DNA of 64,000 nucleotides from an uncultured Bacilli bacterium (lineage in GTDB: Bacteria; Bacillota_I; Bacilli_A; RFN20; CAG-826), in assembly GCA_944358895.1 (NCBI GenBank), contig CALVSB010000006.1, positions 8,573 to 72,572 on the forward strand, given 5' to 3'. Below are positions 3,987 to 22,627 of the stretch, one piece after another. The number at the start of each line of letters is the position of its first letter. The first letter of the stretch is position 1. The notes beneath the pieces are model-generated. The model was not told where the DNA came from, made no database searches, and was given only the letters and a program-made list of their open reading frames with translations. A program made the translations under genes and the position numbers.

Positions 3987-4010
3987 AAGGGCTCCCAGCT
4001 GGAAGCCCTT
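3987..4010 (-). terminator. Hairpin downstream of the cyclase-like gene (possible terminator)
   Basis: 7-bp stem AAGGGCT/AGCCCTT with a 10-nt loop, followed on the minus strand by TTTCTC. The T-tract is weak. Confidence 0.4.
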
Positions 4011-4025: not shown

Positions 4026-4766
4026 TTACTTGACCTTCTTTTCGATCCAGGCGCCGTAATCGGCATCGAGGAGCGAGGCGTGGTAGCACCACATGTTGAG
4101 CTCTTTCGAGAACTTCCTGGTGAAGAACTCCCAGTAGCCTTGCTTGGCGTTGGCCGCGTAGTTCTTGATGTTGTCGAAGTAGAGGCGGTCGATGACGATT
4201 TCTCCGAAGTCGTCTTTTGCGGCTTGCCGGGCCATCTTCGCCGCGTCGAAGAGAGAATCGCCTACATAAGCCAGAGGGGCATCGCCTTCGCCCGTCTTGA
4301 TGACGAGGCATTCGGAGGTCGAGAGGCCGATCCCAATCTCGAAGGTGGCCATGTTCTTCTTGTCGAGGCTCCGCTGGAGCAACTCGTTGAAGGTGTTCAC
4401 GTAAATCGCGTCCTCGAGGAGGGAGACGAGATCTTCCTGCCCCGGGGTGTTGTAGTAGGCGATCATCTTGTCGCCTTCGATCGTGAGGCGGAGAAGCTTC
4501 TTGTTTCCGCGGAGGATGGCCGCGACCTCCCCATAAAAGGCCCGGACGATCCGTGCGACATCAAGCGGCTCCTCTTCCTTGAAAAGAGGGGCAGCGTTCC
4601 GAATGTCGATGACCATGGCGGCCATCCAGCCTTTGACGCCATTCTCCTTCAGGGCCGCTTCCTTGAGGTCGATGGCATTGACGGTGGCAATTTTGGTGGT
4701 GGAAGACAAGATGGCGTCGACTCTCTTTTTGGAGGCCGCGTAAATCTCCTCGTTGGTCATAGGCAC
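4026..4766 (-). CDS. Class III nucleotidyl cyclase-like protein (stand-alone catalytic-type domain)
   Basis: VIDIRNAAPLF, IEGDKMIAYY, IGIGLSTSECLVIKTG and YVGDSLFDAAKMARQ align by eye to the FxDIxGFT, GD, RIGIHxG and GDxVNxAxR blocks of class III cyclases. Both metal Asp are present; the canonical Asn and Arg of the last block are not conserved. Confidence 0.55.
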   Translation of the reverse strand: MPMTNEEIYAASKKRVDAILSSTTKIATVNAIDLKEAALKENGVKGWMAAMVIDIRNAAPLFKEEEPLDVARIVRAFYGEVAAILRGNKKLLRLTIEGDKMIAYYNTPGQEDLVSLLEDAIYVNTFNELLQRSLDKKNMATFEIGIGLSTSECLVIKTGEGDAPLAYVGDSLFDAAKMARQAAKDDFGEIVIDRLYFDNIKNYAANAKQGYWEFFTRKFSKELNMWCYHASLLDADYGAWIEKKVK

Positions 4767-5193
4767 TTCTCCTCTATTTATTTATCCTTATTCTAACGGC
4801 AACTTTTACTTTTCGTTACTATTTCAAGCAAATCGATGACATTTTTTCCGTTTTGTTACATGGTAAAGACAGTTGCGACGGGGAACTGGATGATGGAGAA
4901 AGCGTTTATAAACCATCGGGCAAACTCATTTTGCTAGCCCTCAGGAGGCTTCGCTATAGCTATCACCGGGTACTGTAGACGGTAAGGATAAAACCCATCG
5001 CGAAGCATGGAAAGACGAACGCTTTGATGGTTCGCGGCTCTTTACAAAATAGTTGTCATAAACGGTCGTCCTTCATTGAAATGAGGGATAGTCGCCGTTC
5101 TTCGATTCTGTTCGTCTTTCTCGTATTTTCAGATGATATCGGTTGTTTTTGCGGAATATTTGTGCAAATTCATCGAAATTCACCCAAAGTCTC

Positions 5194-5209
5194 AAAAAAC
5201 GGGGGATTT
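5194..5209 (+). repeat. Direct repeat copy 1: AAAAAA-CG-GGGGATTT
   Basis: 16-mer that recurs 76 nt downstream with only the two central bases different. Confidence 0.6.
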
Positions 5210-5269
5210 TCTATACACTGTTAATGTTTATATCAAGCCAACCTTGAAAATCAGAAATTAAAATCTTTG

Positions 5270-5285
5270 AAAAAATCGGGGATTT
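5270..5285 (+). repeat. Direct repeat copy 2: AAAAAA-TC-GGGGATTT
   Basis: Second copy of the 16-mer, in the AT-rich region upstream of the fibre operon. Confidence 0.6.
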
Positions 5286-5462
5286 GCAAGGATATTGATT
5301 TTAGGCCTCGACAAGGACTTTCTTTTGCTTGTAGAGCGCTACCGACAATGCAAGAATTGTGCCGGGCAGATGACCCAATAGGGAAGCCGAGCTACTCGTC
5401 ATGAGAGCGCCAGCGGCGGCCCGTTTGCCACCATCGTGCCCGAGCATTCAAAGGAGGTTAGC

Positions 5463-6278
5463 ATGAAAAAGCAAACCAAGCTCGAAAAGCGTCGCAAGAC
5501 TGTACTCGGAGCCGTTCTCGGATTCGGTGCGGTTGCGCTCCTCACCACGGCCACGGCAACCTGGATTATCGCGGTCAACAATTCAACGTTCGATGGTGAC
5601 ATTGGCGTGACGGTGGACACGGTTCAAAACAACTCTGTCAAACTTTCAGTTGTAATTGATAATAACGACAAAGGCCTCAATGTAGCGGAGAATGCCTCGA
5701 GCTTCGATCCCGAAGGACTAATCCAATACACGAGCTCGGATGACACTTTGGCCGTCGATGGTGGAAGCATCTCAATTCCGGACTTCAAGATCAAACTGTC
5801 AACAATCACTGTTGAGTATGGTTCGAATTTCTGCGGTGCTGATGAGAAACTCGTCCTTAATCTTTCACTAAAATATGGCGCGGGTTTGAAGAATAATGGT
5901 TCTAATCTTGCCAAGGAAGCTGACGACTTAATTGGAAAGCGCACTGATGACAGCCCCCTTGCTTTCACTGTTGCGTCTACTGGAGAGGGCGAACCCGATT
6001 CATGGACGTATGTGAAACTGGAAACGACTCAAATCGAGTTGAATACCGGCACTGGCGAAACCACCAAGACATCTACCACCGAAGGCAAGACTGTAACTTT
6101 CACTTGGGGTTCGTTCTTCGACAATAAGTCGCCAGCCACCTATTACAACGAGCTATTCCAAGCCGACACGGCTCAAGTTCAAGACGCTGCCAACATCGAA
6201 AGTGAGCTTGCTAATATGAAGAGCAGGCTGGAACAAGGCCTTGTGCTCACCTGTAGCGTTGCTGTTGTTGATGCCTAA
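5463..6278 (+). CDS. Secreted protein with SipW-cognate-type (TasA/camelysin-like) signal peptide
   Basis: Start at ATG 5463 with AAAGGAGG SD. KR-rich N-terminus plus a hydrophobic core ending ATATWIIAV, similar to the GGGTWAAF region of TasA. Paralog of the next gene, sharing a C-terminal FxWGxxFxxxxPxxY block. Confidence 0.5.
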   Translation: MKKQTKLEKRRKTVLGAVLGFGAVALLTTATATWIIAVNNSTFDGDIGVTVDTVQNNSVKLSVVIDNNDKGLNVAENASSFDPEGLIQYTSSDDTLAVDGGSISIPDFKIKLSTITVEYGSNFCGADEKLVLNLSLKYGAGLKNNGSNLAKEADDLIGKRTDDSPLAFTVASTGEGEPDSWTYVKLETTQIELNTGTGETTKTSTTEGKTVTFTWGSFFDNKSPATYYNELFQADTAQVQDAANIESELANMKSRLEQGLVLTCSVAVVDA

Positions 6279-6295
6279 CCTTCTTGGTACAAACT

Positions 6296-7063
6296 ATGAA
6301 AAGTAAAATCAAGGGTAACAAGAAGTTTGCCTATATTCTTCTCGGCGCGGGCGCCATTGCAATGACTGGAATCGCGTTCTCGGCCTGGATTATTACCGGC
6401 ACTATCACTCAAATTGATGTAGCCAATGTTTCTGTGACGGTTGGCGAGGTTAAGGACCAGCGGTTTGTTGCAACCGTACTCGAAAGTGGACGCGATTACG
6501 ATTTGAGTTTTGACTGCGAAGCTGGTGACGTTACCACACCGATAATTGCCGGAGATGGCGCTAAGGAGGATTTGTCTTTTGGCTTCACGGTCACCATCAC
6601 GAATGCTGTTGACACTTCAACCGGAAATCTTTCTACCGCGTTCACGGGGTACACGCTTGAAACGACTTATCCCGCGGACATCAATGACATTGTTTCAACA
6701 AACAAACTCATTGTTCTGCCCATCGATTCAGGCCGCGTTGAAATTGTGCCCGGTGAGATAACGCTTGCTTCATCTGTGAGGTATAACGCTGACGGAACGG
6801 TTAATAACGAGTCTTCGACATGGTCTGTGACTTACTCGGCCGAAGGCTCGACTCTCAAAGCCGTATTCGTGTTTAGTTTCTTGTGGGGCGACTATTTTAA
6901 CGGGCAAAATCCTGGGAAATATCAAGAATCGGAAATCACAATGCCGTCTGTCAGTGATATCGATGACTTGAAGGCTAAACTGAATCTTCTCAAGACCACT
7001 TTTGGAAGCGAAGGCAGTTTGGCTATGAAACTTACTCCTGAAGTTTCTGCCGGCCAAGATTGA
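6296..7063 (+). CDS. Secreted protein with SipW-cognate-type signal peptide (paralog of 5463..6278)
   Basis: N-terminus MKSKIKGNKKFAYILLGAGAIAMTGIAFSAWIITG and C-terminal FLWGDYFNGQNPGKY block. ATG 6296 preferred over TTG 6284. Confidence 0.5.
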   Translation: MKSKIKGNKKFAYILLGAGAIAMTGIAFSAWIITGTITQIDVANVSVTVGEVKDQRFVATVLESGRDYDLSFDCEAGDVTTPIIAGDGAKEDLSFGFTVTITNAVDTSTGNLSTAFTGYTLETTYPADINDIVSTNKLIVLPIDSGRVEIVPGEITLASSVRYNADGTVNNESSTWSVTYSAEGSTLKAVFVFSFLWGDYFNGQNPGKYQESEITMPSVSDIDDLKAKLNLLKTTFGSEGSLAMKLTPEVSAGQD

Positions 7064-7149
7064 GCTATCAGCAGTTTTTGACTGCTTTCAGTTCTGATGA
7101 TTGGCTTTGGCTTTACCGCTTTGCTTAAAATCGTCATAGAGCCATTCAG

Positions 7150-8127
7150 ATGTCCAGCATTGAAATCCTCTCGCTTATCGTGACGATCGTCGCTCTCGTG
7201 AGCCTCTCGTTCGTCTTCACCTTTCTCTTCCGTAACTATTTCCGCGGAATCATCGAAGCGGTGCAAAGCGGGGAAGAAGATGCTGAACTCATTTATGAAG
7301 AAGCGATGGGCAAGCGGGAAAAGACCGTTGCCCAGAAGATTCTCCACTATAGCGGCAAGGCCCTTTCCTACCTCGTCCTCCTTCTCTTGGTCGGGGTTTT
7401 CACCGGATCCCTTGTCTCACGGTTCATGGGGACCGAGATGAGCATAGGGGGCAATATACCCCTTGTCATTGTCTCGGGCTCGATGTCCTACAAAAACGAC
7501 GCCAACCAATATCTATATACAAACCATCTGGACGACCAGTTCCAGACGTACGACATCATCGTGGTCAACCCGACCGCGAGCCCCGACGACATCGAACTCT
7601 ACGACGTCATCGCTTTCTACTCTTCGGAAGGCACGGTCGTCGTTCACCGGGTCGTCGATATCGTCGATACCTCGGAAGGCAAGATGTTCGTCACCCGCGG
7701 GGATGCGAACAAGGCCAGCGACGCGAATGCCCTCTATGGCGACTACCTGCCTTACCAGCAAGTGGTAGGGGAATACCATGGAGTAAGGCTTCCAGCCGTC
7801 GGTGCCTTCGTCCTCTTCCTTCAATCGGGGGCCGGTGTCGTCTGCGTCATCTCCATCGTCTACTGCTTCGCCATCTTCGAGTTCTATCGCCGGAAGATGG
7901 ACCTCGCCATCGAGGAACGGACCGAGAAACTCCTCTCCTTCCTCACCATCGACGAAGCCGACGAGAATGCCGACGTCAACTTCACGGAAGTCCTGACCTA
8001 CAAGGGCAAGGACTATGTCCTCCCCAACGGGGAACCACCAACTTCTAAGGAGCCTGAAGCGGCTCCCTCCGCCGATAAAGGCGACAAAACAAATATCCAA
8101 GCTACATCCAAGGAGGATCAGCAATGA
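7150..8127 (+). CDS. Signal peptidase I, SipW/Sec11 (ER-archaeal) type, with extra N-terminal TM and acidic C-terminal tail
   Basis: Catalytic Ser box VSGSMSY, His box VVHRVV, TRGDANKASD box and a C-terminal TM helix. Confidence 0.8.
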   Translation: MSSIEILSLIVTIVALVSLSFVFTFLFRNYFRGIIEAVQSGEEDAELIYEEAMGKREKTVAQKILHYSGKALSYLVLLLLVGVFTGSLVSRFMGTEMSIGGNIPLVIVSGSMSYKNDANQYLYTNHLDDQFQTYDIIVVNPTASPDDIELYDVIAFYSSEGTVVVHRVVDIVDTSEGKMFVTRGDANKASDANALYGDYLPYQQVVGEYHGVRLPAVGAFVLFLQSGAGVVCVISIVYCFAIFEFYRRKMDLAIEERTEKLLSFLTIDEADENADVNFTEVLTYKGKDYVLPNGEPPTSKEPEAAPSADKGDKTNIQATSKEDQQ

Positions 8128-9932
8128 AAGGGCTCTTCAAACGCGTCGACGGGATCGCGCTTTCCCTCGTCTTCTTCTATTGCCTCATCGTCGGGTTCGT
8201 CGGGCTTTGCCTCGACCCCAATTCGACGATCGTGATGACCTCGAACCCCATCGCCTCCTTGGCGACGGCCTTAGGCTTTGCCAAGATCGAATCCCTTGGT
8301 ATCCCAAGCGGCATCATGCTGGCGATGATCTTGGTCTACACCTTCCTCTTTGCCCTCGCGGTGATCGTCGAAGTGCGTCTGGCCGAGAATGCGGACGAGA
8401 AACCGTATTCGGCCAAGTGGCTTTCCATCATGGCAGCTTCTTTCGTTGTTCTCTATGGCCTTGGGATCGGCATCGGTTCCGTTTCCCACCTGGCCTTCGA
8501 CGACGGGGTGAGCCTCGTCGCCCAGTCCCTCGCCTATTCGGGCGAAGCGATGCTCCTCGGCCTCGTCATTGCCATCGTCGCCTATCTAGCCATCTTCTTC
8601 CTCGTTCTCCTCGTCTATTGCATCGCCGCCAAGAGCAAACAACCGATCGAAGACGAAGTCTCGCCCGAAAGCGAGGAAGCCAAGAAACTCGAGGAACTCG
8701 AAGAGAAAGTCGACGAGGCCCTCGATGCCCACAATGGCGACGTCGCCTCTTCCTTTGCCGCCCACGGAAGCGGCGAAGGAGTCGGAACCGGCACCGGCCC
8801 GAGCAATCCCGACGACTTCTATGCCCTCGACCGGAACCGGGTCTTCCCCTCCATTTCGCGGGTCGATTCCCGGGCCGACCTCGTGGCTGTCAAGGAATTC
8901 AAGGACGACGAGGCCCTCGACCTCCGCACCTTGAGCGACGATTTCCGCGACTTCCTGGCCGGGAAGGAGGGCCTCTATTACGAAAAGACGGCCGTCCGCG
9001 CCTTCATCGCCGGCCTTTCGGCTTCCCGTCTCATCATTCTCCAAGGCCTTTCCGGCACCGGCAAGAGCTCGATAGCCCGTTACTTCTCGACCTTCATCGG
9101 CGAGAAGTCCTTCTTCGTGCCGGTCCAGACCACCTGGCGCGACCGGACCTCGATCCTCGGCTATTGGAACGACTTCAGCAAGACCTACAACGAGACCGAT
9201 TTCCTCGTTCGCCTCTACGAGGCCACTTACCAGTCGCAGGACATCAACGTCATGGTCCTCGACGAAATGAACATCGCCCGGATCGAGTATTACTTCGCCG
9301 ACTTCCTCTCGATCATGGAGTACCCGGTCGACGAACGCTACCTCAAGATCATGAACGTTCCTTACGATTTCGTGACTCCGGAGCATCTCCCCGACGGCAC
9401 CCTCAAGATCCCGGAGACGACCTGGTTCATCGGCACGGCCAACCGCGACGACTCGACCTACACGATCACCGACAAGGTCTATGACCGCTCGATCGTCATC
9501 TCCTTCAACGAGCGGAACGAGCCTTTTGCCGTCAAACGGATACCAGAACCGTATTCGATCTCCTATTCGAAGCTCATGTCTCTCTACGAAGCCGCCCAGA
9601 AAGACGAGGACAAGAAGATGAACAAGGCCGACTGGGCCAAGTTCCGGAACGTCCTCAACCGGGCCTACGAGGATTTCGAGCTCACCTTCGGCAACCGCGT
9701 CTACCACCAGATCGAACTCTTCGTTCCGGTCTTCGTCGCCTGCGGCGGCACCAAGGAAGAAGCCCTCGACTTCATGTTCGCCGAGAAGATCGCCAACAAG
9801 CTCGAAGGGCGCTACGAGGACTTCGTCAAGGATGCCCTCATTTCCCTCCGGGAAGAAATCGACAAAAACTACGGCAAGAACGGCTTCCCGCTCACCCGCG
9901 AGCGCCTCGCCCACTTGCTCCGGAGATTCTAA
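8124..9932 (+). CDS. Polytopic-membrane McrB-type AAA+ (COG1401-like) protein
   Basis: About five hydrophobic helices in the first ~190 aa, then an acidic linker, Walker A GLSGTGKSS, VMVLDEMNIARIEYYFADFLSIME and FIGTANRDDST. The ATG overlaps the peptidase stop (ATGA). Confidence 0.7.
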   Translation: MKGLFKRVDGIALSLVFFYCLIVGFVGLCLDPNSTIVMTSNPIASLATALGFAKIESLGIPSGIMLAMILVYTFLFALAVIVEVRLAENADEKPYSAKWLSIMAASFVVLYGLGIGIGSVSHLAFDDGVSLVAQSLAYSGEAMLLGLVIAIVAYLAIFFLVLLVYCIAAKSKQPIEDEVSPESEEAKKLEELEEKVDEALDAHNGDVASSFAAHGSGEGVGTGTGPSNPDDFYALDRNRVFPSISRVDSRADLVAVKEFKDDEALDLRTLSDDFRDFLAGKEGLYYEKTAVRAFIAGLSASRLIILQGLSGTGKSSIARYFSTFIGEKSFFVPVQTTWRDRTSILGYWNDFSKTYNETDFLVRLYEATYQSQDINVMVLDEMNIARIEYYFADFLSIMEYPVDERYLKIMNVPYDFVTPEHLPDGTLKIPETTWFIGTANRDDSTYTITDKVYDRSIVISFNERNEPFAVKRIPEPYSISYSKLMSLYEAAQKDEDKKMNKADWAKFRNVLNRAYEDFELTFGNRVYHQIELFVPVFVACGGTKEEALDFMFAEKIANKLEGRYEDFVKDALISLREEIDKNYGKNGFPLTRERLAHLLRRF

Positions 9933-9944
9933 TAGGGAGGAGCC

Positions 9945-11255
9945 ATGGAGGGCTTTGAGAGCCGGTTCGAAAAATCCCTAGCCGCCCTCATCGGGAAAAG
10001 GGCCGCCTATTCCTCCTTCAGCGAGGAAAAGCTTTCCTTTACCTACGTCGATCCTTCGCGGAGCGAAATATCCGAGCTCTCTTCCCTCCTCGATACTTTC
10101 ATGGGCATTGCCGGCTCCCCTCACCGCAAAAGCGAGCCCCACGAAATCGTCGAGCGGAGCGAGCTCGCTTCTTCTTTGACCCCCGACGAGTTTAGGAAGA
10201 CCTACCTCGACTCTTCCTTCTGGCGGCAGAAGAAAGATGGTTCCTTCTATCCGGAATACGTTTACGGTAGCGAGTACGACGACAACCTTCTAACCTACGA
10301 GAACAAGGCGGTTTATTTCATCTTCTGCCTCATCAAGGCCCGCCTCGAGGAACTTTCGACCTCGGTCAAAGAAGAAGGGAACTCCCTCGAGAAGCTTTAT
10401 CAGTCGCCTCTCGCCATCTTCCCGGATGAAGGCCCTCTTTATACGGCCGAGAAGCGGGGCAAAAGCGTCGCCGCCTACCTCCTCAAGAAGAAAGAGGACA
10501 GCTCCGGCGAACTTCTCCTCAAGGCTCTTAGCAAGGCCAAGCGCCTTCTTTCCTCCCAGTTTGCCCGGACGCTCATGAAGGCCAACCACGAAGTGATCCT
10601 GCCCCTCCAGCCGACGAACATCCTGATCCACGATTCCCGTTACAACCGCCTTTATCGTTACTACCTTTCCCATCTCAGCAAGGAAGGCAAAGGACGCCAC
10701 GATTCACCCTATGTCTATCTGGCCTACCGGCTTCTCCAGGAAATGACGAAGGCCGGCTACCGTTTGGCCCAGGAGCCCAATTTCAAATACAAAGACGGAA
10801 CCTTCACCATCACGGCCTTTACCTTCAGCCTCGACGGGTTTCTTTATCACTGCAAGATCGACGAAGACGTCCTTCGGATCGAGATTCTCTACCGCGGAGC
10901 CGTCTACCGGCGGGAAGTCTACCTCTACGACACCTTCCTTCCGACGGCCGATAACCGCGAAGTCCTCGCCCATCATTACGTCGTCTGCTTGAAGAATCTT
11001 TCCTCATCTTACGACGGAATCCTCGAGGTCGATCCTCTCAATAAAGAAGCGGTGTTCCCGCGCCTCTTCGCGGCCCTCTCCCTCGTCCTTCCCCTCGACG
11101 GGAAAGAACTCGACCATTGCCCCGTCTGCGGCTCCTCGGCCCTCGTTTCCTCCGCCAAGAAAGAGTTCCTTTGCCCCAAATGCGAATCGCTTACGGCCCT
11201 CCTCGGGGGCCGGGTCGATCCGGCGATCTGGATCGCTTCGATCAGGGGGAGATAG
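9945..11255 (+). CDS. Zinc-ribbon protein, possible McrC-like partner of the AAA+ protein
   Basis: GGGAGGAG SD, 12 nt after the AAA+ gene. LTYENKAVYF block reminiscent of the ExN motif region of McrC/DUF2357-type partners. C-terminal CPVC-x14-CPKC. No obvious PD-(D/E)xK motif by eye. Confidence 0.45.
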   Translation: MEGFESRFEKSLAALIGKRAAYSSFSEEKLSFTYVDPSRSEISELSSLLDTFMGIAGSPHRKSEPHEIVERSELASSLTPDEFRKTYLDSSFWRQKKDGSFYPEYVYGSEYDDNLLTYENKAVYFIFCLIKARLEELSTSVKEEGNSLEKLYQSPLAIFPDEGPLYTAEKRGKSVAAYLLKKKEDSSGELLLKALSKAKRLLSSQFARTLMKANHEVILPLQPTNILIHDSRYNRLYRYYLSHLSKEGKGRHDSPYVYLAYRLLQEMTKAGYRLAQEPNFKYKDGTFTITAFTFSLDGFLYHCKIDEDVLRIEILYRGAVYRREVYLYDTFLPTADNREVLAHHYVVCLKNLSSSYDGILEVDPLNKEAVFPRLFAALSLVLPLDGKELDHCPVCGSSALVSSAKKEFLCPKCESLTALLGGRVDPAIWIASIRGR

Positions 11256-11257
11256 AC

Positions 11258-12043
11258 ATGAAGATCAAGAAATCCCTCGAAATCGACGTCGACAAGATTG
11301 CGAACGACCTTTCGCAGAATGCCGTCTCCATCGTCGATGTCCATAAATCCTACGGAGACCACGAGGTCCTCAAGGGCGAGAACATCGAAGTCCGCCGCGG
11401 CGAGATTTTCGGGTTGCTTGGCAAAAACGGGGTCGGCAAGTCGACGACCATCGATTGCCTCATCGGGGCCAAGGATTTCGACCAAGGCGAGATCAAGATC
11501 TTCGGCCTTCCGATCGACGAATATCCCCTCGAGGTGAAAAGCCTTTATGGGTATGTGCCGTCCGAGCCGCTTCTCTACGAGCAGATGACCGGCTACGAGT
11601 ACCTTCAGTTCGTGGCCTCAGCCTACGGCCTCAGCCAAGAGGCCTTCGACAAGAACCTCGCCTTCCTCGACGGGGCCTTCCAGCTCGGGGAGGAAGCCCT
11701 TTCCCGCCCGATCGGCGGCTATTCGCACGGCATGAAGCAGAAGGAGGGGCTCATTGCCTCCCTTATCCACAACCCCAAGCTCTGGATTCTCGACGAGCCG
11801 ACGGTCGGCCTCGACGTCATGGCCTACGAAACCCTCCTCGACATGATGAAGCGCTACCGCGACAACGGGAATACCATCGTCTTGACCTCCCACAACATCG
11901 ACCTCATCGCCGACGTGACCGACCGGGTGGCCATCCTGAACGAAGGGAAGGTCGCGACCCTCATCGACTTCCACAAGGAGCCGCAGAAGCGGAAGGACCT
12001 GAAACTCGTCTTCTTCAAGGTCTACGGGGCCAAACTCTCATGA
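11258..12043 (+). CDS. ABC transporter ATP-binding protein
   Basis: Walker A GKNGVGKST, degenerate signature YSHGMKQK, Walker B LWILDEPTVGLD. Start ATG 11258 with GGGGGAG SD, 2 nt after the preceding stop; the track ORF start 11117 is an in-frame extension overlapping the previous gene. Confidence 0.9.
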   Translation: MKIKKSLEIDVDKIANDLSQNAVSIVDVHKSYGDHEVLKGENIEVRRGEIFGLLGKNGVGKSTTIDCLIGAKDFDQGEIKIFGLPIDEYPLEVKSLYGYVPSEPLLYEQMTGYEYLQFVASAYGLSQEAFDKNLAFLDGAFQLGEEALSRPIGGYSHGMKQKEGLIASLIHNPKLWILDEPTVGLDVMAYETLLDMMKRYRDNGNTIVLTSHNIDLIADVTDRVAILNEGKVATLIDFHKEPQKRKDLKLVFFKVYGAKLS

Positions 12044-13656
12044 GTCTTCATATCTTCATCAACGAGCTGAAGGGACTCCTCCCCAAGGGGAGCCTTCTTT
12101 CGCGCGTCTTGAAGATCGCTCTCCTACTTGTCGCCATTGCCTGTTTCCTCGGGCTCGAGGTTTATATCTACCTGGCTCTCGACGGCCAGCTCAAGGACTT
12201 CTCAAGCTTCGGCTCGGGCGATTTCCTGCTTCTCTTCCTTTTCGTCTATTTCTTCCTCTCGGTCCTCGCTTCCTTGCCTTTGGCCGACCGTTGCCTTTAC
12301 CGGAAGCTCGACGAGGAAATCCTCTCGCCCCTCCCGGTGAGCGACGACGACGTCATTCTCGGCAAGGGCCTCTATCTTTATGTCCGCCTCGTCGTCTCGA
12401 CCCTTTTCCTCGCGACGCCCCTTCTCATTGCTTACGGGACGACGTCGAACATGATGCCCCAATACTACGTGTTGGCCGTCCTTTATCCGTTTGTCGTTTC
12501 CTTTGTCGCGATCGGCCTTCTTCTGGCCCTTTTGCCTCTTTATCACCGGCTGGCCCGTTTCATGAAGGGCAAGTTCCTCCTTCAGCTCATCCTCGGGGCC
12601 GGGGTGACGGTCGCTCTCTGTTTCCTATACCAGTACGTCCTCGAGCTCTTCCTGAACATCGTCCAGGGGAGCCGCCTCGATTCCCTCTTCTCGGCCTCGT
12701 TCCTGAGCGGCCTCCACGAAGCCGCTCCGTGGTTCATCCCGGTCAGCAACTACTTTGCCCTCATGAGCGGTGGCGACAAGGTCATCAGTAATCTCCTCTA
12801 CCTCCTCGGGGCCATCCTTCTCATGGCGTTTCTTGGAATCTATCTCCTCACTTACCTCTATCGTTCCAACAAGGAACCGATGGCCGAAGAGAAGAAGAAA
12901 AAGAGAGAAAAGAAAGCCGCTTTGCGGGTGCTTTCGCCCTTCAAGGCCTTGCTCAAGAAAGAATTCATCCTCCTCTTCCGCAACGGAAGCTATCTCTTTT
13001 CCTTCTCCTCGCTCCTCTTCATGCAGCCTTTCCTTTCCTATGTCGTCATCGCTTCCCTCTCGAGGCTTCTCTATAGCAACCTTGCCATCTTCCTCAAGTA
13101 CTTCTCGGAACTTCCCAACGGCGTTTCCCTCCTCTTGCTCCTCCTTTTTGCCTCCATCGTTTCCTCGGGGGCAGCCGACGGCATCACCCGCGAGGAAAAG
13201 GGACGCCTCTTCCTCAAGACCTCGCCCCTCTCCCCTTTCAAGATGACCTTGGCGAAGCTTCTTTTGCCCCTTGGGGTTTCCCTTTTCTCGTTTTATCTCA
13301 GCGCGATCGTCCTCGTGGCGACCGGCGAGATCGGCGTTCCTCTTTTCTTCGTCGCCCTCGTGAGCGGCACCTTCCTTGTGGCCTCGGTCTCGAGCTACGG
13401 CCTTCTTGGGGATCTCGCTTCCTATTCGGCTAGGGTCAAGGGCAAAGGCTTCTTCGGATCGCTTACGGCTATTGTGTCGATCGCCTTCCCTTTGCTCATT
13501 GCCCTCGTCCATTTTGCCCTCATGTTCTATAGCGGCCTTCCTTCTTTTGTTATCTACCTCATCGAGGTGGCCTTCAGCTTCCTCCTTCTCCTTCCGCTTC
13601 CCTTCGTCCCGCGGCGGCTCGACCGCCTGTATCTTGAAATGGAGGCCGGCGTATGA
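12040..13656 (+). CDS. Multi-pass membrane protein, putative ABC exporter permease
   Basis: Start MSLHIFINELKG at ATG 12040, overlapping the ATPase stop (ATGA). Ten or more hydrophobic segments. The part of the track ORF upstream of 12040 is an Arg/Pro-rich artefact. Confidence 0.75.
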   Translation: MSLHIFINELKGLLPKGSLLSRVLKIALLLVAIACFLGLEVYIYLALDGQLKDFSSFGSGDFLLLFLFVYFFLSVLASLPLADRCLYRKLDEEILSPLPVSDDDVILGKGLYLYVRLVVSTLFLATPLLIAYGTTSNMMPQYYVLAVLYPFVVSFVAIGLLLALLPLYHRLARFMKGKFLLQLILGAGVTVALCFLYQYVLELFLNIVQGSRLDSLFSASFLSGLHEAAPWFIPVSNYFALMSGGDKVISNLLYLLGAILLMAFLGIYLLTYLYRSNKEPMAEEKKKKREKKAALRVLSPFKALLKKEFILLFRNGSYLFSFSSLLFMQPFLSYVVIASLSRLLYSNLAIFLKYFSELPNGVSLLLLLLFASIVSSGAADGITREEKGRLFLKTSPLSPFKMTLAKLLLPLGVSLFSFYLSAIVLVATGEIGVPLFFVALVSGTFLVASVSSYGLLGDLASYSARVKGKGFFGSLTAIVSIAFPLLIALVHFALMFYSGLPSFVIYLIEVAFSFLLLLPLPFVPRRLDRLYLEMEAGV

Positions 13657-16046
13657 AGAAAACCCTGCCCGTCCTCTTGCTGGCCCCCTTCGCCGTCGCG
13701 ATCCTCACTTTCGTGTCGATCACCCCGATCCGGAACCTCATCGCGGTCGATATCGACGGCATCTCCTGGGACTACCTCGACAGCGAAGGCTTCAAGGTCG
13801 GGGAATCCTACGAGCTCGAGGCTACCCCGATCTATGATGAGAACTTCACCTTGGCCGACGGGAACGACCTCGTCTGGACGAGCGCGGACGACGAAGTTGC
13901 TGCCATTAAAAGAAGCGGGGATGCCTTCTACCTCGATGCCATCCAGGAAGGCAGCTGCCGGATCACTTGCTCCAACGAGAAAGGGAGCGTCTCGCGGAAT
14001 TTCCTCGCGACCGTCTACGAAGACGGGGCCATCACGATTGTCGATGCCGGGACCCCGGCCTCGGGCGATAGCTTCGAAGACGTCCGGACCTACGGCCAGT
14101 TCGACTATTCCTACGAGGGCGGGACCGCGACGAAGGTCCAGGCGGCCATCACTTTGTCCTTTGGGATCTATAGCGACTATGACGACGACGAGGTCGTGCT
14201 CAAGGAAGCCTCGAGCAACCTTTCCTACGCGGACTCGACCTTGACCGTCAAGGCGCCGGGCGCCTCCTATGCGACCTTCGCCCTCAAGAAGATGCCCTTC
14301 GTTACCGCGACCTATTCCTTCGACGTCCTTGAAGGCGCGGTGAACGTCAAAAGCTACGACGACCTCATGCAGGCGACCAATCTTTCGGAAGAGGGGGAAA
14401 GGATCTGCCTCCAGCGGAATCTTCTTTCCCTCAAGTCAACCTACAAGAGCGATGGCGACGGCGGCTACGTCGACGAGTATTTGAACGCGAATACCCGCCT
14501 TTTCGGGCGTTACGACTTTGGGCGGGAGACGACCTCCTTCGACATCTATGCTTTCGACACCACCTATCCCCACGACTACCTCGACGATTACTTTGCCCAC
14601 AACCCCCCGACGCCAGGGCAAGAGGATTACCTCAAGGTGAGGACCGGCATCCATGTCCAAAAGGATTTCATCGGGAACGGCTTTGCCATCTCTTGCCAGG
14701 AGCTTTGCTACACCTACCACGGCGGCTACCTCGGGAACGGCCGCTGGAGCCCCTCGAGCGACGGGAGTAACGTCAGCGATTACTTCGAAGGGCCGCTTCC
14801 CTTCGTCTTCCTTGGGCCCTACGACCTCCAGGTCATCACTGCCTACGGGCAGGACAACTCGGCGATGTACGTCGAAGGGAACGACATCGAGATCTCTGAT
14901 CTTAAGCTGATGGCCGTCGACAACGTCGACGACTTGAACCTCCTCGAGTACGTCGGCTCGACGATGGACGTCCTCGGGGCAAACGTCACCGTGTCCGACA
15001 CCTACCTCCGGAACGGGCGGACGGCCCTCCGGGTCTACTCCTCCCCGAACTTCCTCCTCGACAATTGCTACCTCAACAACGCCCGCGAGTTCCTCCTTAA
15101 GGTCGGGAGCAACGAAGTGAGCCGCCCCGATCCTTCGACCCGGGTCGACGCCAGTTACGGCGGGGCACTCGCCCACGGAAGCCTCGAAGAGAATTTCGCC
15201 AGCGGCGGCGGGGCTGATCAGATTCTCGATGCCGCCGTCCGGAGTGGAGCCGACATCGCTTCGGCGATGGAAGCGATGAACGCCATCCAGTCCTCGCTCG
15301 ACGCCTCCGAGCCGCTCGATGCCTGGGACATGACGGTGAGGAATACCTATTTCGAGACGAGCGGCCTCTTCTCCATCGCCTTCGAAAGCGTCTTCAACGG
15401 CGGCTATCTCTATAGCGGCGTCCCTTCCTTCGTCTCCGAGCTCCTCGACACCTTCATGGGCATGATGAACCTCAAGTCGGTCCCGCCCGATCGCATCGGC
15501 GGTGTCTCCCGCCCGGTGAACATGACCATCGAGGGCGATACCCGCTTCTACGACTACAAAGACATCTCATCGATCGACGCTAGCTGCCTCATCTACGAGC
15601 AGATCTCGGCCATCCTGGCCGGAATCGGGAGCGACAGCGGGGACCTCACTTTCCCGATCGACAGCTATTTCCCGATCAAGAACCTGCTTCAGACCGCGGC
15701 CGAGCGGGTCGGGTCCAACTACCGGAACGAGGACGGCAACTTCGTCCTCGGGGCCATTGCTTTCTACGGCGGGGGCCTTAACCTATCGACAGTCGATGTC
15801 TCGGGGATGGACGTCTCCCCTCTCGGAGGAGAGCTGAGCGTCGATTACGCAACGGCTTGCCTTTCCGGCATCGGCCTCGCCGAAGGAAACGAGCTCTCGG
15901 CGTATTTGGCCCGCTGCGTGCCCCTGGCCGCCGGGACCAACCCCTTCCGCTTCGTCCTGAGCGGCGACCTCAGGCAAGTCGAGAAGCCTTACCTATTCGG
16001 CGAAGTGGCCGATATCAATGCGCTCAAGGCGCGAGGAGGAAACTAA
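13653..16046 (+). CDS. Large exported/anchored protein with Big_2-like Ig domain and probable beta-helix region
   Basis: N-terminal hydrophobic signal/anchor MKKTLPVLLLAPFAVAILTF. LVWTSADDEVAAIKRSGDAFYLDAIQEGSCRITCS matches Big_2 style. Repetitive N/D/G-rich turns are suggestive of a right-handed beta-helix. Start overlaps the previous stop (ATGA). Confidence 0.7.
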   Translation: MKKTLPVLLLAPFAVAILTFVSITPIRNLIAVDIDGISWDYLDSEGFKVGESYELEATPIYDENFTLADGNDLVWTSADDEVAAIKRSGDAFYLDAIQEGSCRITCSNEKGSVSRNFLATVYEDGAITIVDAGTPASGDSFEDVRTYGQFDYSYEGGTATKVQAAITLSFGIYSDYDDDEVVLKEASSNLSYADSTLTVKAPGASYATFALKKMPFVTATYSFDVLEGAVNVKSYDDLMQATNLSEEGERICLQRNLLSLKSTYKSDGDGGYVDEYLNANTRLFGRYDFGRETTSFDIYAFDTTYPHDYLDDYFAHNPPTPGQEDYLKVRTGIHVQKDFIGNGFAISCQELCYTYHGGYLGNGRWSPSSDGSNVSDYFEGPLPFVFLGPYDLQVITAYGQDNSAMYVEGNDIEISDLKLMAVDNVDDLNLLEYVGSTMDVLGANVTVSDTYLRNGRTALRVYSSPNFLLDNCYLNNAREFLLKVGSNEVSRPDPSTRVDASYGGALAHGSLEENFASGGGADQILDAAVRSGADIASAMEAMNAIQSSLDASEPLDAWDMTVRNTYFETSGLFSIAFESVFNGGYLYSGVPSFVSELLDTFMGMMNLKSVPPDRIGGVSRPVNMTIEGDTRFYDYKDISSIDASCLIYEQISAILAGIGSDSGDLTFPIDSYFPIKNLLQTAAERVGSNYRNEDGNFVLGAIAFYGGGLNLSTVDVSGMDVSPLGGELSVDYATACLSGIGLAEGNELSAYLARCVPLAAGTNPFRFVLSGDLRQVEKPYLFGEVADINALKARGGN

Positions 16047-16047
16047 G

Positions 16048-17151
16048 ATGAAAAGAAGGAACGTCCTATTGGCCCTGGCGGCCTTTGCCCTCGGGGCCGT
16101 CTCGCTCACGAGCTGCGGCTTCTTCGCCGGGAGCGGCACCTATTCGATCGACGAGGTGACGACCTCGACGACGGCCACCGGCGACACGGTGGTGACCATT
16201 TCCTATACGGACACCAGGCTGCCGGCGACGACCTTCACCATCCCCAAGGGCGAGACCGGGGTCGGGATCGCTTCGGCGACGGCGAGCGTCGACGAGGAAA
16301 AGAAGACGGTTACCGTCACCATCACTTACACCGACGACCGGGAGCCGACCGTCTATACCTATCCGATCGTCGAAGGGAACGGGATCGAAAGCGTGGCCCT
16401 CACCTACCAGGAAGGCAGCACGACCCAAGTCTATTCCTTCCACTTCGTCTACACGAACGGCGAGATCAGCGACGAAATCATTCTCCCAAAGGGCAACGGC
16501 ATCGCCTCGATTACGGCGACGGCCAACGAGGAGGACGGCTCCACCGACGTCAAAATCACGATGGACGACGGGAAAGAGGTGACTTTCAACATCCCGAAGG
16601 GCGAGAAAGGCGATCCGGGCGAGGACGGCTTCTCCCCGGAAATCGTCGGGATCAGCCTCGGGGCCGACGGCAAATGGTATCTCTACGTCACCCGGGCCGA
16701 TGGCGGAACCGACCAGAAGCCGATCGACGGGATGCCGACCTGGATCGTCGCCCAGGGCAACCCCAACGACAATCCGACCTATGACGACTACGCGACTGGC
16801 TACATCTACGTCGACACCTTGACGAGAACGATTTATTACAAGACGGCCGATAGCGGCTGGGTCATCTGGGTCGACCTCGGGCAGAAGGCGACCTACACGG
16901 TGACCTTCCACGCCGGCGAGGGCACGATCCCGCCCTCGGAGCTCGTCGGCTTCACCATCGGGGAAGGCAATACCTACAGCCTTACCGTGAAAGAAGGGTC
17001 GACGATCGACCTTCCGACCCCGACCGCTCCCGCCAGTCTTTCCTTTGAAGGATGGTACACGTCGAGCGAGCTCTCCGACCCCAACGTCGGCAAGATGACT
17101 GACCTCACCCCGGTTACGAGAAGCCTCGACCTTTACGCGATTTACGCGTGA
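16048..17151 (+). CDS. Lipoprotein with ~40-aa tandem modules, a collagen-like GEKGDPGEDG tract and a C-terminal Listeria-Bacteroides (Flg_new) repeat
   Basis: Lipobox LTSC. Four repeats ending IPKGE/LPKGN/VEGN followed by GI(A/E)S. C-terminal YTVTFHAGEG...FEGWYT...LYAIY repeat signature. Start 1 nt after the preceding stop. Confidence 0.85.
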   Translation: MKRRNVLLALAAFALGAVSLTSCGFFAGSGTYSIDEVTTSTTATGDTVVTISYTDTRLPATTFTIPKGETGVGIASATASVDEEKKTVTVTITYTDDREPTVYTYPIVEGNGIESVALTYQEGSTTQVYSFHFVYTNGEISDEIILPKGNGIASITATANEEDGSTDVKITMDDGKEVTFNIPKGEKGDPGEDGFSPEIVGISLGADGKWYLYVTRADGGTDQKPIDGMPTWIVAQGNPNDNPTYDDYATGYIYVDTLTRTIYYKTADSGWVIWVDLGQKATYTVTFHAGEGTIPPSELVGFTIGEGNTYSLTVKEGSTIDLPTPTAPASLSFEGWYTSSELSDPNVGKMTDLTPVTRSLDLYAIYA

Positions 17152-21385: not shown

Positions 21386-22627
21386 CTAAAGTTGGTGCCT
21401 GGCGACCGTGTTCACCAGAAGGAGCAAGGCTTGGGCCTCGGGGCTATTGCTGAACAAATCCTTATGGAAGACAGGCTTTTTGCGGTGCTTTTTAGCTCCG
21501 TAGCACGTTAGCAAAAAGCGCTTCATCATCTTTTCCGAGAGCCGGCGGAAGGTGAAGAAATTGCCTTCGTCCTGCGGGGATACCTCGTCTTCGAGGCGGC
21601 CATGGATGAGATAGTCCATCTCGCGGAGGGTGTACTCCTTGAGGGGATCGATCCCCAGGGCCTTGGCGGCCATTTCGGCCGTCTTCATGAGATAGGCCGT
21701 CGCATGGTGCCGCTTGCCAGGATCGAGCCCGAGGGCCGTGGTAATGGCCTCGAAGGAGTAGGGGTCTTTTTTGAAAAGCTGGCGGGCGAAGCGGTCGGCG
21801 ATGTCCTTCTCGCTTTGCTTCACGACGAAGTAGTAGTCGTAGCCTTTGTTGAGCTTCAAGGCTTTCCGGGCATCGAGGTAGCCGAGGGTCATGTTCTCGT
21901 CGAGCCGCTTCCTCGTGAAATCCATGATCGTCCCGATGTCGCGGTTGGGGGCGATGAGGGTCACGTTCGGGAGGCGGGTCAACTCGTAGTTTTGGGGAAT
22001 CTTCGGGATGGCCGGCAGGCAAATGGCGACGATCTCGCTGGCCCCGCGCTTGACCGCGAGGTCGATCGGCAGGTTGTTGGTGAAGCCGCCGTCGACCCAT
22101 TTCTTGCCGTTGTAGGAATGGACGGGGAAAAGCGGGTAGCAGGCCGAGGTGGCTAGGAGCGCTTCCCTGATCTCGTCGGGCGGAAGGCCGTTCAAGGTGA
22201 CGTCGACTTCCTTGAGGGAAGGGTAGGAGGTCACGACGATGTCGATCGGTGTCTTGCAGGCCGAAATCTTCGCATAGTCGATTTCCCGGTCCATCATCTC
22301 CTTGAAAGGCTGGATGTCCGCGCCGCGGTGGGAGATGTAGCTTTTGGCGAAGGCTAGGATCTTGCTCGTTTGGACTTTTCGGGCCTCGTTGAAGAAATTG
22401 GCGGAAAGGGAAAAGCCGTCTTTCATGACGTCGTCGATGTCGACTTGGTCCCAAAGGCGTTGGCACTTGTCGAATTCGTCGAGGGCGACGAAGGCGCCGA
22501 TGAAGGCCCCAATCGAGGTCCCGGCGACATAAGAAAAGCGCTCGCCGGCTTCGCGGAGGGCTTTCCAAGCACCCATTTCGTAGGAGCCAAGAGAGCCACC
22601 ACCGCAGAGGACGAGCGCTTTTTCCAT
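21386..22627 (-). CDS. Patatin-like phospholipase
   Basis: GGGSLGSYEMG oxyanion box, GTSIG nucleophile elbow, DGGFTNNLP catalytic Asp box. Confidence 0.9.
   Translation of the reverse strand: MEKALVLCGGGSLGSYEMGAWKALREAGERFSYVAGTSIGAFIGAFVALDEFDKCQRLWDQVDIDDVMKDGFSLSANFFNEARKVQTSKILAFAKSYISHRGADIQPFKEMMDREIDYAKISACKTPIDIVVTSYPSLKEVDVTLNGLPPDEIREALLATSACYPLFPVHSYNGKKWVDGGFTNNLPIDLAVKRGASEIVAICLPAIPKIPQNYELTRLPNVTLIAPNRDIGTIMDFTRKRLDENMTLGYLDARKALKLNKGYDYYFVVKQSEKDIADRFARQLFKKDPYSFEAITTALGLDPGKRHHATAYLMKTAEMAAKALGIDPLKEYTLREMDYLIHGRLEDEVSPQDEGNFFTFRRLSEKMMKRFLLTCYGAKKHRKKPVFHKDLFSNSPEAQALLLLVNTVARHQL

Follow-up and report, generated by a model that had tools for sequence, protein, structure and literature searches.

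PycC-type cyclases make cyclic UMP and cyclic CMP as alarm signals in the anti-phage Pycsar systems, and to our knowledge these nucleotides are known in bacteria almost solely as phage-alarm signals from cyclases that are wired to an effector. The defining feature of a Pycsar system is a gene for a PycTM or PycTIR effector next to the cyclase gene. Two PycC enzymes of solved structure, BcPycC (PDB 7R65, clade B) and AnPycC (PDB 8JSZ, clade D), are uridylate cyclases; they are single-domain class III proteins of about 230 to 260 amino acids with a PycC-type N-terminal helix, two metal-binding aspartates in FxDI and GD blocks, a GIG block and a lysine in place of the arginine of the last catalytic motif. 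In the PycC+PycTM systems of Firmicutes and Actinobacteria, for instance on Lactococcus lactis pUC06D and Mycobacterium marinum pRAW, the cyclase gene overlaps or abuts a gene for a PycTM of 160 to 190 amino acids, and these systems are often located on plasmids or islands and once on a phage. Here, we describe a gene for a PycC-like protein that stands without such a partner in the genome of an uncultured Bacilli/Firmicutes bacterium of the chicken gut. It lies in a stretch of 64,000 nucleotides (the window; positions 8,573 to 72,572 of contig CALVSB010000006.1, assembly GCA_944358895.1):

4026..4760, minus strand: predicted coding sequence of a PycC-type class III nucleotide cyclase, 244 amino acids (evidence: list of open reading frames (ORFs), PADLOC model PDLC02368, AlphaFold and Foldseek, and the ratio of nonsynonymous to synonymous substitution rates, dN/dS)

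The ORF runs on the minus strand from a GTG codon at position 4766 to position 4026 (246 amino acids) and holds all four peptide blocks by which an earlier note, made from the letters of this DNA, had recognized it as cyclase-like. The true start is most likely ATG 4760, two codons after the GTG, which gives a protein of 244 amino acids, since a Shine-Dalgarno sequence (GGAGAAG) lies directly 5' of GTG 4766 and the homologues all begin with MTNEE or MGNEE; residues are numbered here from ATG 4760.

The window protein shares with BcPycC and AnPycC the size, the N-terminal helix and the catalytic blocks listed above, including the lysine. However, it is only about 16% identical to them, carries phenylalanine instead of the asparagine of the last motif, lacks the ND/NE dyad before the WIG motif, differs at the positions that select uracil and has no adjoining effector gene. 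With the cyclases of the PycC+PycTM systems, to which it is 20 to 36% identical, it has in common the match to PDLC02368, the length, a C-terminal Y...W motif and residues other than Asn and Arg in the last motif, whereas its gene is chromosomal, of core-like composition, apparently monocistronic and partnerless. Other solo PycC-like genes of the same clade, with no PycTM detected next to them, are found on the Paenibacillus chromosome (L007/L008), at the metagenomic locus L010 and on plasmids of Priestia (L027) and Mycolicibacterium (L026); the proteins of Paenibacillus and L010 lack a metal-binding aspartate, while the window subfamily is intact in three lineages, evolves under purifying selection and has pocket substitutions of its own. 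The canonical class III cyclases CyaB (3R5G), Cya2 (2W01) and CyaC (1WC1) share the fold and the two-metal aspartate pair with the window protein, but possess the Asn/Arg transition-state pair and purine-specifying residues, and their Pfam model stays below threshold on it.

Family and fold of the cyclase

The protein matches the PADLOC PycC model PDLC02368 over nearly its whole length (2e-48, 163 bits; residues 7-242 of 244, profile positions 6-233 of 234), a much stronger match than the 15 bits obtained with the generic Pfam profile Guanylate_cyc, which lie under the cutoff of 21.9. A search of the PDB with the single sequence returned only a match at E=0.45; as this search and Pfam alone leave the cyclase unassigned, a family profile was needed. 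An exhaustive profile search yielded 573 representative relatives, mostly of 240 to 250 amino acids, and a profile of 53 relatives matches BcPycC (7R65; 3e-14, full length), AnPycC (8JSZ; 2e-13) and PaPycC (6YII), with canonical class III cyclases ranking after them. PDLC02368 is the best PADLOC match for the window protein and for all 53 aligned family members.

Structure prediction gave a concordant picture. An AlphaFold model built with four close sequences reached a mean predicted local distance difference test score (pLDDT) of 50 and was discarded; with twelve diverse sequences, the pLDDT rose to 87.1 and the predicted template modelling score to 0.85, and the model contains the N-terminal helix (residues 3-19). 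The first Foldseek match of this model is BcPycC (E 1.8e-13, template modelling scores of 0.75/0.80, 237 aligned columns) and the second AnPycC (0.73/0.69, 256 aligned columns), with Cya2, CyaB and CyaC lower. The best 50 of the 154 PDB matches at E<=0.001 are all class III cyclases, and the comparison thereby recognizes the beta-alpha-beta-beta-alpha-beta core of this class. Because the profile matches and the Foldseek ranking with 7R65 and 8JSZ on top agree, the window protein belongs, as judged from sequence profiles and a predicted model, to the PycC family of class III cyclases. This bears out the cyclase fold and the relationship to Pycsar cyclases proposed in the earlier note, which would have been contradicted by a non-cyclase fold.

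Catalytic residues and base pocket

The residues that define the putative active site are encoded as follows:

4605..4607, minus strand: codon of the predicted first metal-binding aspartate (D52, in VIDIRN); aligned counterparts are D102 of EaPycC and the FVDI block, both in BcPycC and across the family
4470..4472, minus strand: codon of the predicted second metal-binding aspartate (D97, in IEGDKM); aligned counterparts are D146 of EaPycC and the family's GD block
4236..4250, minus strand: codons of F171-D172-A173-A174-K175, the counterpart of the N-x-A-x-R block in profile alignments to BcPycC, AnPycC, PaPycC and CyaB

The metal-binding aspartates have been described as D102 and D146 in EaPycC and D62 and D106 in AnPycC (PMC11224242). 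D52 and D97 of the window protein align with this pair in EaPycC, BcPycC, AnPycC and CyaB and, like the GIG block, they are invariant in the window subfamily, even between lineages with an overall identity of only 58%.

The transition-state Asn and Arg of the GDxVNxAxR motif are replaced by Phe171 and Lys175, as had been reported from the sequence; the replacements themselves stand, whereas the view that they set this protein apart does not. Lysine takes the Arg position in all three solved PycCs that were aligned (BcPycC, AnPycC and PaPycC), whose last motifs read WIGRAANYAAKL, GKPINMAAKL and GDPANHAAKL, and is the commonest residue there among 126 family members (49), followed by Asn (35). 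At the other position, Asn is found in 38 of the 126 (30%), with mostly V, T, S, I or F elsewhere (Phe in eight). Where a relative is encoded in a complete PycC+PycTM operon, the residue in place of the Asn is V, I, T or A, and that in place of the Arg is N or K. Judging by these alignments, lysine for arginine is the PycC norm, and the two substitutions are no mark of a defect, since the solved PycCs also have the lysine and PycTM-linked relatives also lack the Asn and the Arg.

The base pocket differs more clearly from that of the relatives. Base choice has been attributed to Y50, D94 and R97 in BcPycC and to F60, K104 and F109 in AnPycC (PMC11224242), and the residues at the uracil-selecting positions of these enzymes are V50, E95, K98 and I100 in the window protein. 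In the comparison of 126 members, the window subfamily departs from the consensus two residues before the first aspartate (F to V/S/A), two residues before the second (R to E/Q), just after it (C to K) and three residues after it (Y/W/F to I); furthermore, the ND dyad that nearly all members have in front of the WIG motif is changed to AP or SP, together with a deletion of three residues. The window subfamily thus shows what appears to be a remodelled base pocket with a retained metal site, and these subfamily-specific changes lend some support to the earlier idea of an unusual product. A prediction of the substrate from the pocket residues was abandoned, as the positions match no characterized specificity set.

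One or both metal-binding aspartates are missing from 30 of the 126 members of the PycC clade (P0024, P0034, P0056, P0061, P0080, P0087, P0093, P0127, P0160 and others), and the two of these whose genomic context was seen are both solo genes. Pseudo-cyclases with a predicted loss of activity are common in this PycC clade.

Absence of an adjacent effector gene

The genomic setting of the cyclase was compared with 15 independent contexts of relatives from outside the lineage of the window. In ten of them, a PycTM gene abuts or overlaps the cyclase gene, namely in three metagenomic loci (L006, L009 and L012), on plasmids of L. lactis, Bacillus velezensis, M. marinum, Limosilactobacillus reuteri, Anoxybacillus and Paenarthrobacter, and in a Ruminococcus phage; these partners were recognized by Pfam PF18967, by the RefSeq name 'Pycsar system effector family protein' or by a local profile (1e-21 to 1e-67). 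One locus, L015, encodes a different partner of 280 amino acids with C-terminal transmembrane helices, which is encoded one base upstream of the cyclase gene and is recognized neither by Pfam nor by the local PycTM profile. The remaining four relatives are solo: those of Paenibacillus and L010 are without a metal-binding aspartate (FVSIR/IRSNS and YRNG, respectively), and the copies on the Priestia and Mycolicibacterium plasmids look intact (2 kb of flank examined).

At the window locus, no adjacent PycTM or PycTIR effector gene was found. The genes next to the cyclase gave no PycTM, TIR or cyclic nucleoside monophosphate (cNMP)-binding match with PADLOC or Pfam, and the local PycTM profile, which recovers the ten real partners, has no match in the 64-kb window or in the related loci L001, L003, L004 and L005, whose flanks were searched for up to 10 kb per side (on the L004 contig, the sequence extends only about 0.5 kb past the cyclase). 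A scan of 150 ORFs of the window showed no PycTM, TIR or cNMP-binding family among the 25 of 67 matched Pfam families and the 25 of 51 matched PADLOC families that were listed; given these numbers, more weight is placed on the local PycTM profile. The orphan status that the earlier note had assigned to the gene is therefore confirmed for the region searched. It is unusual for the clade, though other cases exist, and because of the missing adjacent effector the locus should not be classed among the Pycsar systems.

According to a recent survey, PycC clades C and E use transmembrane effectors, and earlier searches looked only inside defence islands (PMC13069673). The window protein probably belongs to clade C. 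A literature search on orphan or solo PycC cyclases found nothing relevant.

A patatin-like phospholipase of 413 amino acids is encoded at 21386-22627 on the minus strand and gives a weak match to a CBASS-type phospholipase effector of PADLOC (5e-7). It was rejected as a distant effector, as its gene is 17 kb from the cyclase and no nucleotide-binding domain was detected in the protein, and it is probably a housekeeping enzyme.

Selection, composition and expression

In comparison with the copy of the closest relative, L003 (96% identical), the window cyclase has a dN/dS of 0.044 at a dS of 0.55; the values against more distant lineages are 0.17 to 0.33, with dS saturated. The G+C content at third codon positions (GC3) is 0.81, similar to that of core genes (opD, 0.82; gpm, 0.85). 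Contigs of a strain of about 93% identity from one bird-gut RNA-type library cover positions 4073-4755 and leave the intergenic region uncovered, which is weak evidence, of presence only and with DNA carry-over possible, that the cyclase is expressed. The low dN/dS, the core-like GC3 and the nearly complete coverage in the RNA-type library argue for a long-resident functional gene and not for a decaying remnant. The solo relatives of Paenibacillus and L010, which lack a metal-binding aspartate, show the pattern expected for decay and contrast with the intact window subfamily.

As to a defence or mobile context, the GC3 of 0.81 and the conserved synteny of the cyclase stand against a low-GC island with defence-like matches that lies 1.3 kb away. 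This island (16-2683) is absent from L003 and has a GC3 of 0.40 to 0.50 for the genes at 745-2683. It encodes a fragment of a DUF4143 ATPase (PADLOC PDC-S01, 4e-30), a GIY-YIG-like protein, a protein whose C-terminus is PDC-M32A-like and a DUF6941-like protein, and probably represents a variable region of defence genes or mobile DNA.

A candidate solo signalling cyclase

The reading that we favour, by a little more than even chance, is that the gene encodes a domesticated solo PycC, i.e. a competent homodimeric cyclase that produces a 3',5'-cyclic mononucleotide, has lost its effector and serves a receptor that is unlinked or unrecognized. The ancestor would have been a PycC+PycTM pair, from which the linked PycTM effector was lost in the chicken-gut Bacilli lineage. 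By homology, the cyclase is expected to form a head-to-tail homodimer, in which D52 and D97, together with two divalent metal ions, would cyclize a nucleoside triphosphate to the 3',5'-cyclic mononucleotide. By analogy with the family, the product would most likely be a cyclic pyrimidine (cUMP or cCMP), although the remodelled pocket makes this uncertain. The cyclase would be a long-term chromosomal resident that is transcribed alone, and since PycTM is absent at the locus, the receptor of its signal would have to be encoded elsewhere or belong to an unrecognized type.

A variant of this proposal, in which the protein has become a housekeeping signalling cyclase, puts more emphasis on the pocket (V50, E95, K98, I100 and the lost ND dyad): the cyclase would either make a different nucleotide than its PycTM-linked relatives or use the same one for a new purpose, and would act through a new type of receptor, possibly controlling the neighbouring SipW operon described below. 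We regard this variant as rather unlikely.

A PycC that has lost its effector but is conserved with intact catalytic residues would be a candidate for cyclic-pyrimidine signalling outside defence, or for an immune system in which sensor and effector are encoded apart; if the cyclase is simply a remnant that continues to act with an effector encoded elsewhere, the finding is an ordinary one. The solo PycC described here varies a known theme only modestly. The locus also holds two warnings for annotation: tools that look for defence systems pass over a gene of this kind, as its partner is missing, and reading the motifs against canonical adenylate cyclases flags normal PycC features as defects. 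Indeed, the features that the earlier note found most striking are normal for the PycC family.

Gene neighbourhood and the divergent SipW-type operon

The surroundings of the cyclase gene comprise:

3987..4010, minus strand: terminator-like hairpin after the cyclase stop codon (sequence and RNA fold)
4767..5462, no strand assigned: divergent intergenic region of 696 nucleotides (composition, four-lineage alignment)
5463..17151, plus strand: divergent neighbour operon, included for context and no established part of the cyclase locus (Pfam, NCBIfam, PADLOC; synteny)
5463-7063, plus strand: opA and opB, the first two operon genes, encoding two fast-evolving exported proteins of about 260 amino acids
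7150-8127, plus strand: SipW-type signal peptidase (TIGR02228, over cutoff)
8124-9932, plus strand: membrane-anchored McrB-like AAA_5 ATPase
ending at 12043, plus strand: ABC ATPase, followed by a permease of the type with 12 transmembrane helices (about 12040-13656)
further operon products, plus strand: a 436-amino-acid protein, a 797-amino-acid protein and a Flg_new-domain protein

The hairpin consists of a GC-rich stem of 10 bp and a loop of four nucleotides (AAGGGCUUCC-AGCU-GGGAGCCCUU), is followed by the U-rich sequence UUCUCAU and lies between the cyclase stop and the next gene; RNA folding gives the stem about -20 kcal/mol. A consensus terminator scan left it uncalled, with the rules for loop and tail narrowly missed, and its role as a terminator and the separate transcription of the cyclase are for this reason no more than plausible. 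The downstream neighbour encodes a nucleotide-sugar dehydrogenase, ugd-like and of the UDP-glucose dehydrogenase type (TIGR03026, 281 bits against a cutoff of 190), whose real start is probably ATG 3905. The intergenic region on the other side has a G+C content of 43%, compared with 56% for the whole window, and should hold the promoters of both the cyclase and the operon, together with the operon's leader. The presence of an effector encoded by a small ORF, or of a riboswitch, inside this gap was considered and rejected, as no credible small ORF, no similarity to PycTM and no match to an Rfam family, and hence no known riboswitch, was found in it. The hairpin, the AT-rich gap of 696 nucleotides and the ugd-like neighbour had all been recorded correctly before, as had the divergent orientation towards the operon and the probable transcription of the gene on its own.

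The operon looks like an uncharacterized surface-fibre or export machine. An operon of about ten genes is kept across many uncultured gut Bacillota, with two to five paralogous exported proteins of about 250 amino acids and a partner of about 440 to 480 amino acids, and its ATPase has more than 5,000 homologues, which are mostly unnamed. OpA and OpB are 32 to 39% identical between lineages whose ATPase is 76% identical, and their GC3 is about 0.5 compared with 0.8 in the rest of the operon, which suggests, from these comparisons, diversifying selection on exposed surface proteins or their repeated replacement.

In every cyclase-bearing lineage, the cyclase gene lies divergently beside this operon: in L003, in L004 (cyclase 60% identical) and in L001/L005 (58%). 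The opposite flank is rearranged; ugd adjoins the cyclase in the window and in L003, and a glycosyltransferase/polysaccharide cluster is inserted in L001/L005. Four more distant genomes (L016-L019; opD 46 to 51% identical) contain the whole operon with a different upstream gene in each and no cyclase homologue within 8 kb of it. The distribution indicates that the operon is probably ancestral and self-sufficient and that the cyclase gene joined it at the 5' boundary in a single sublineage.

A promoter-like sequence, TTGAAA-18-GATATT, is present at 5267-5296, and a four-lineage alignment revealed an intergenic block around 5290-5345 that is conserved in all cyclase-bearing lineages. The pattern TTTGCnnnGATATyG followed by TCTTTTnCTTG (about 5267-5345 in the window; 9636-9650 in L001, 9429-9443 in L003 and 9553-9567 in L004) lies about 120 to 170 nucleotides upstream of the first operon gene and likely represents the operon promoter and the start of the leader; the exact pattern was not found in the operon copies that lack a cyclase.

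Alternative explanations

Several observations weigh against a competent solo cyclase. Phenylalanine replaces the canonical transition-state asparagine, the change of ND to AP/SP with the deletion of three residues could impair catalysis, and no report of enzymatic activity was found for any member of this PycC clade in the sources that could be read. The effector search covers 64 kb of the genome, beyond which an unlinked effector may be encoded, the whole-window Pfam and PADLOC results comprise the 25 families listed for each, and the RNA contigs come from a related strain and from a library that may contain DNA. The first two of these points would equally fit a pseudo-enzyme, an option already raised in the earlier note, in which the cyclase fold is kept for binding or scaffolding and no nucleotide is made. 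The four base-pocket positions off the clade consensus and the frequent inactivation in the clade (30 of the 126 members short of a metal-binding aspartate) point in the same direction. However, both aspartates and the GIG block are invariant at 58% identity, whereas the degenerate solo relatives lost theirs, clade members linked to PycTM are also without the Asn and Arg, and the dN/dS of 0.044 speaks for constraint, so that we consider a pseudo-enzyme improbable. Even less likely is a housekeeping role as an ordinary adenylate or guanylate cyclase, with no more than a resemblance to PycC. RefSeq calls relatives 'adenylate/guanylate cyclase domain-containing protein', and canonical adenylate and guanylate cyclases also match the model structurally; yet Guanylate_cyc stays at 15 bits while the PycC model reaches 163, the best matches in sequence and structure are PycC enzymes with the N-terminal helix included, and the Asn/Arg pair of purine cyclases is absent.

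The two other explanations concern the neighbours. The gene could belong to a complete two-component Pycsar-like defence system whose adjacent effector is unrecognizable, as the partner in L015, which escapes Pfam and the PycTM profile, demonstrates that effectors can evade detection, and the low-GC island with defence-like genes (745-2683) is only 1.3 kb away. On one side, however, the cyclase gene is followed by the hairpin and the sugar dehydrogenase gene, and on the other by the 696-nucleotide gap without a credible ORF; moreover, the island is absent from L003, the far flank varies between lineages and the composition of the cyclase gene is core-like, unlike that of a mobile defence module. 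A hidden neighbouring effector is thus very unlikely. The earlier note had further suggested a regulator of the surface operon, and the cyclase may be coupled to the SipW operon in that its nucleotide controls the expression or assembly of the exported proteins through the 696-nucleotide region or a membrane protein of the operon. The divergent layout recurs in each of the three lineages that carry the cyclase (58 to 96% identical) despite the rearranged opposite flank, and the shared intergenic block is conserved in all of them. The adjacency, however, is limited to one narrow lineage, in which synteny may simply be inherited, scans of the operon proteins with Pfam, NCBIfam and PADLOC revealed no cNMP-binding domain, and the leader contains no known RNA family. 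As the same operon occurs without a cyclase homologue within 8 kb in four more distant genomes, it needs no cyclase, and an obligate link is unlikely. The connection to the surface operon is therefore weak, and we see little prospect that such coupling explains the gene.

Further observations

In the GC-rich window, long spurious overlapping ORFs are frequent. One of them, a mechanically called ORF at 11455-13656 (733 amino acids), overlaps the ABC ATPase gene of the operon in another frame; a comparison with related loci indicates that 11117-13656 comprises two genes, one for an ATPase of about 265 amino acids ending at 12043 and one for the permease, starting near 12040.

Three of the relatives' loci carry a second, more divergent cyclase-like gene beside a canonical PycC+PycTM pair (L009, 3552-4499; L022, 3743-4813; L023, 937-2376; profile E-values of 1e-9 to 1e-25), and such three-gene arrangements are absent from the standard two-gene description of Pycsar. 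In L023, a record of the Ruminococcus phage NatCom_28274, the PycC+PycTM pair is encoded by the phage itself (1967-3281).

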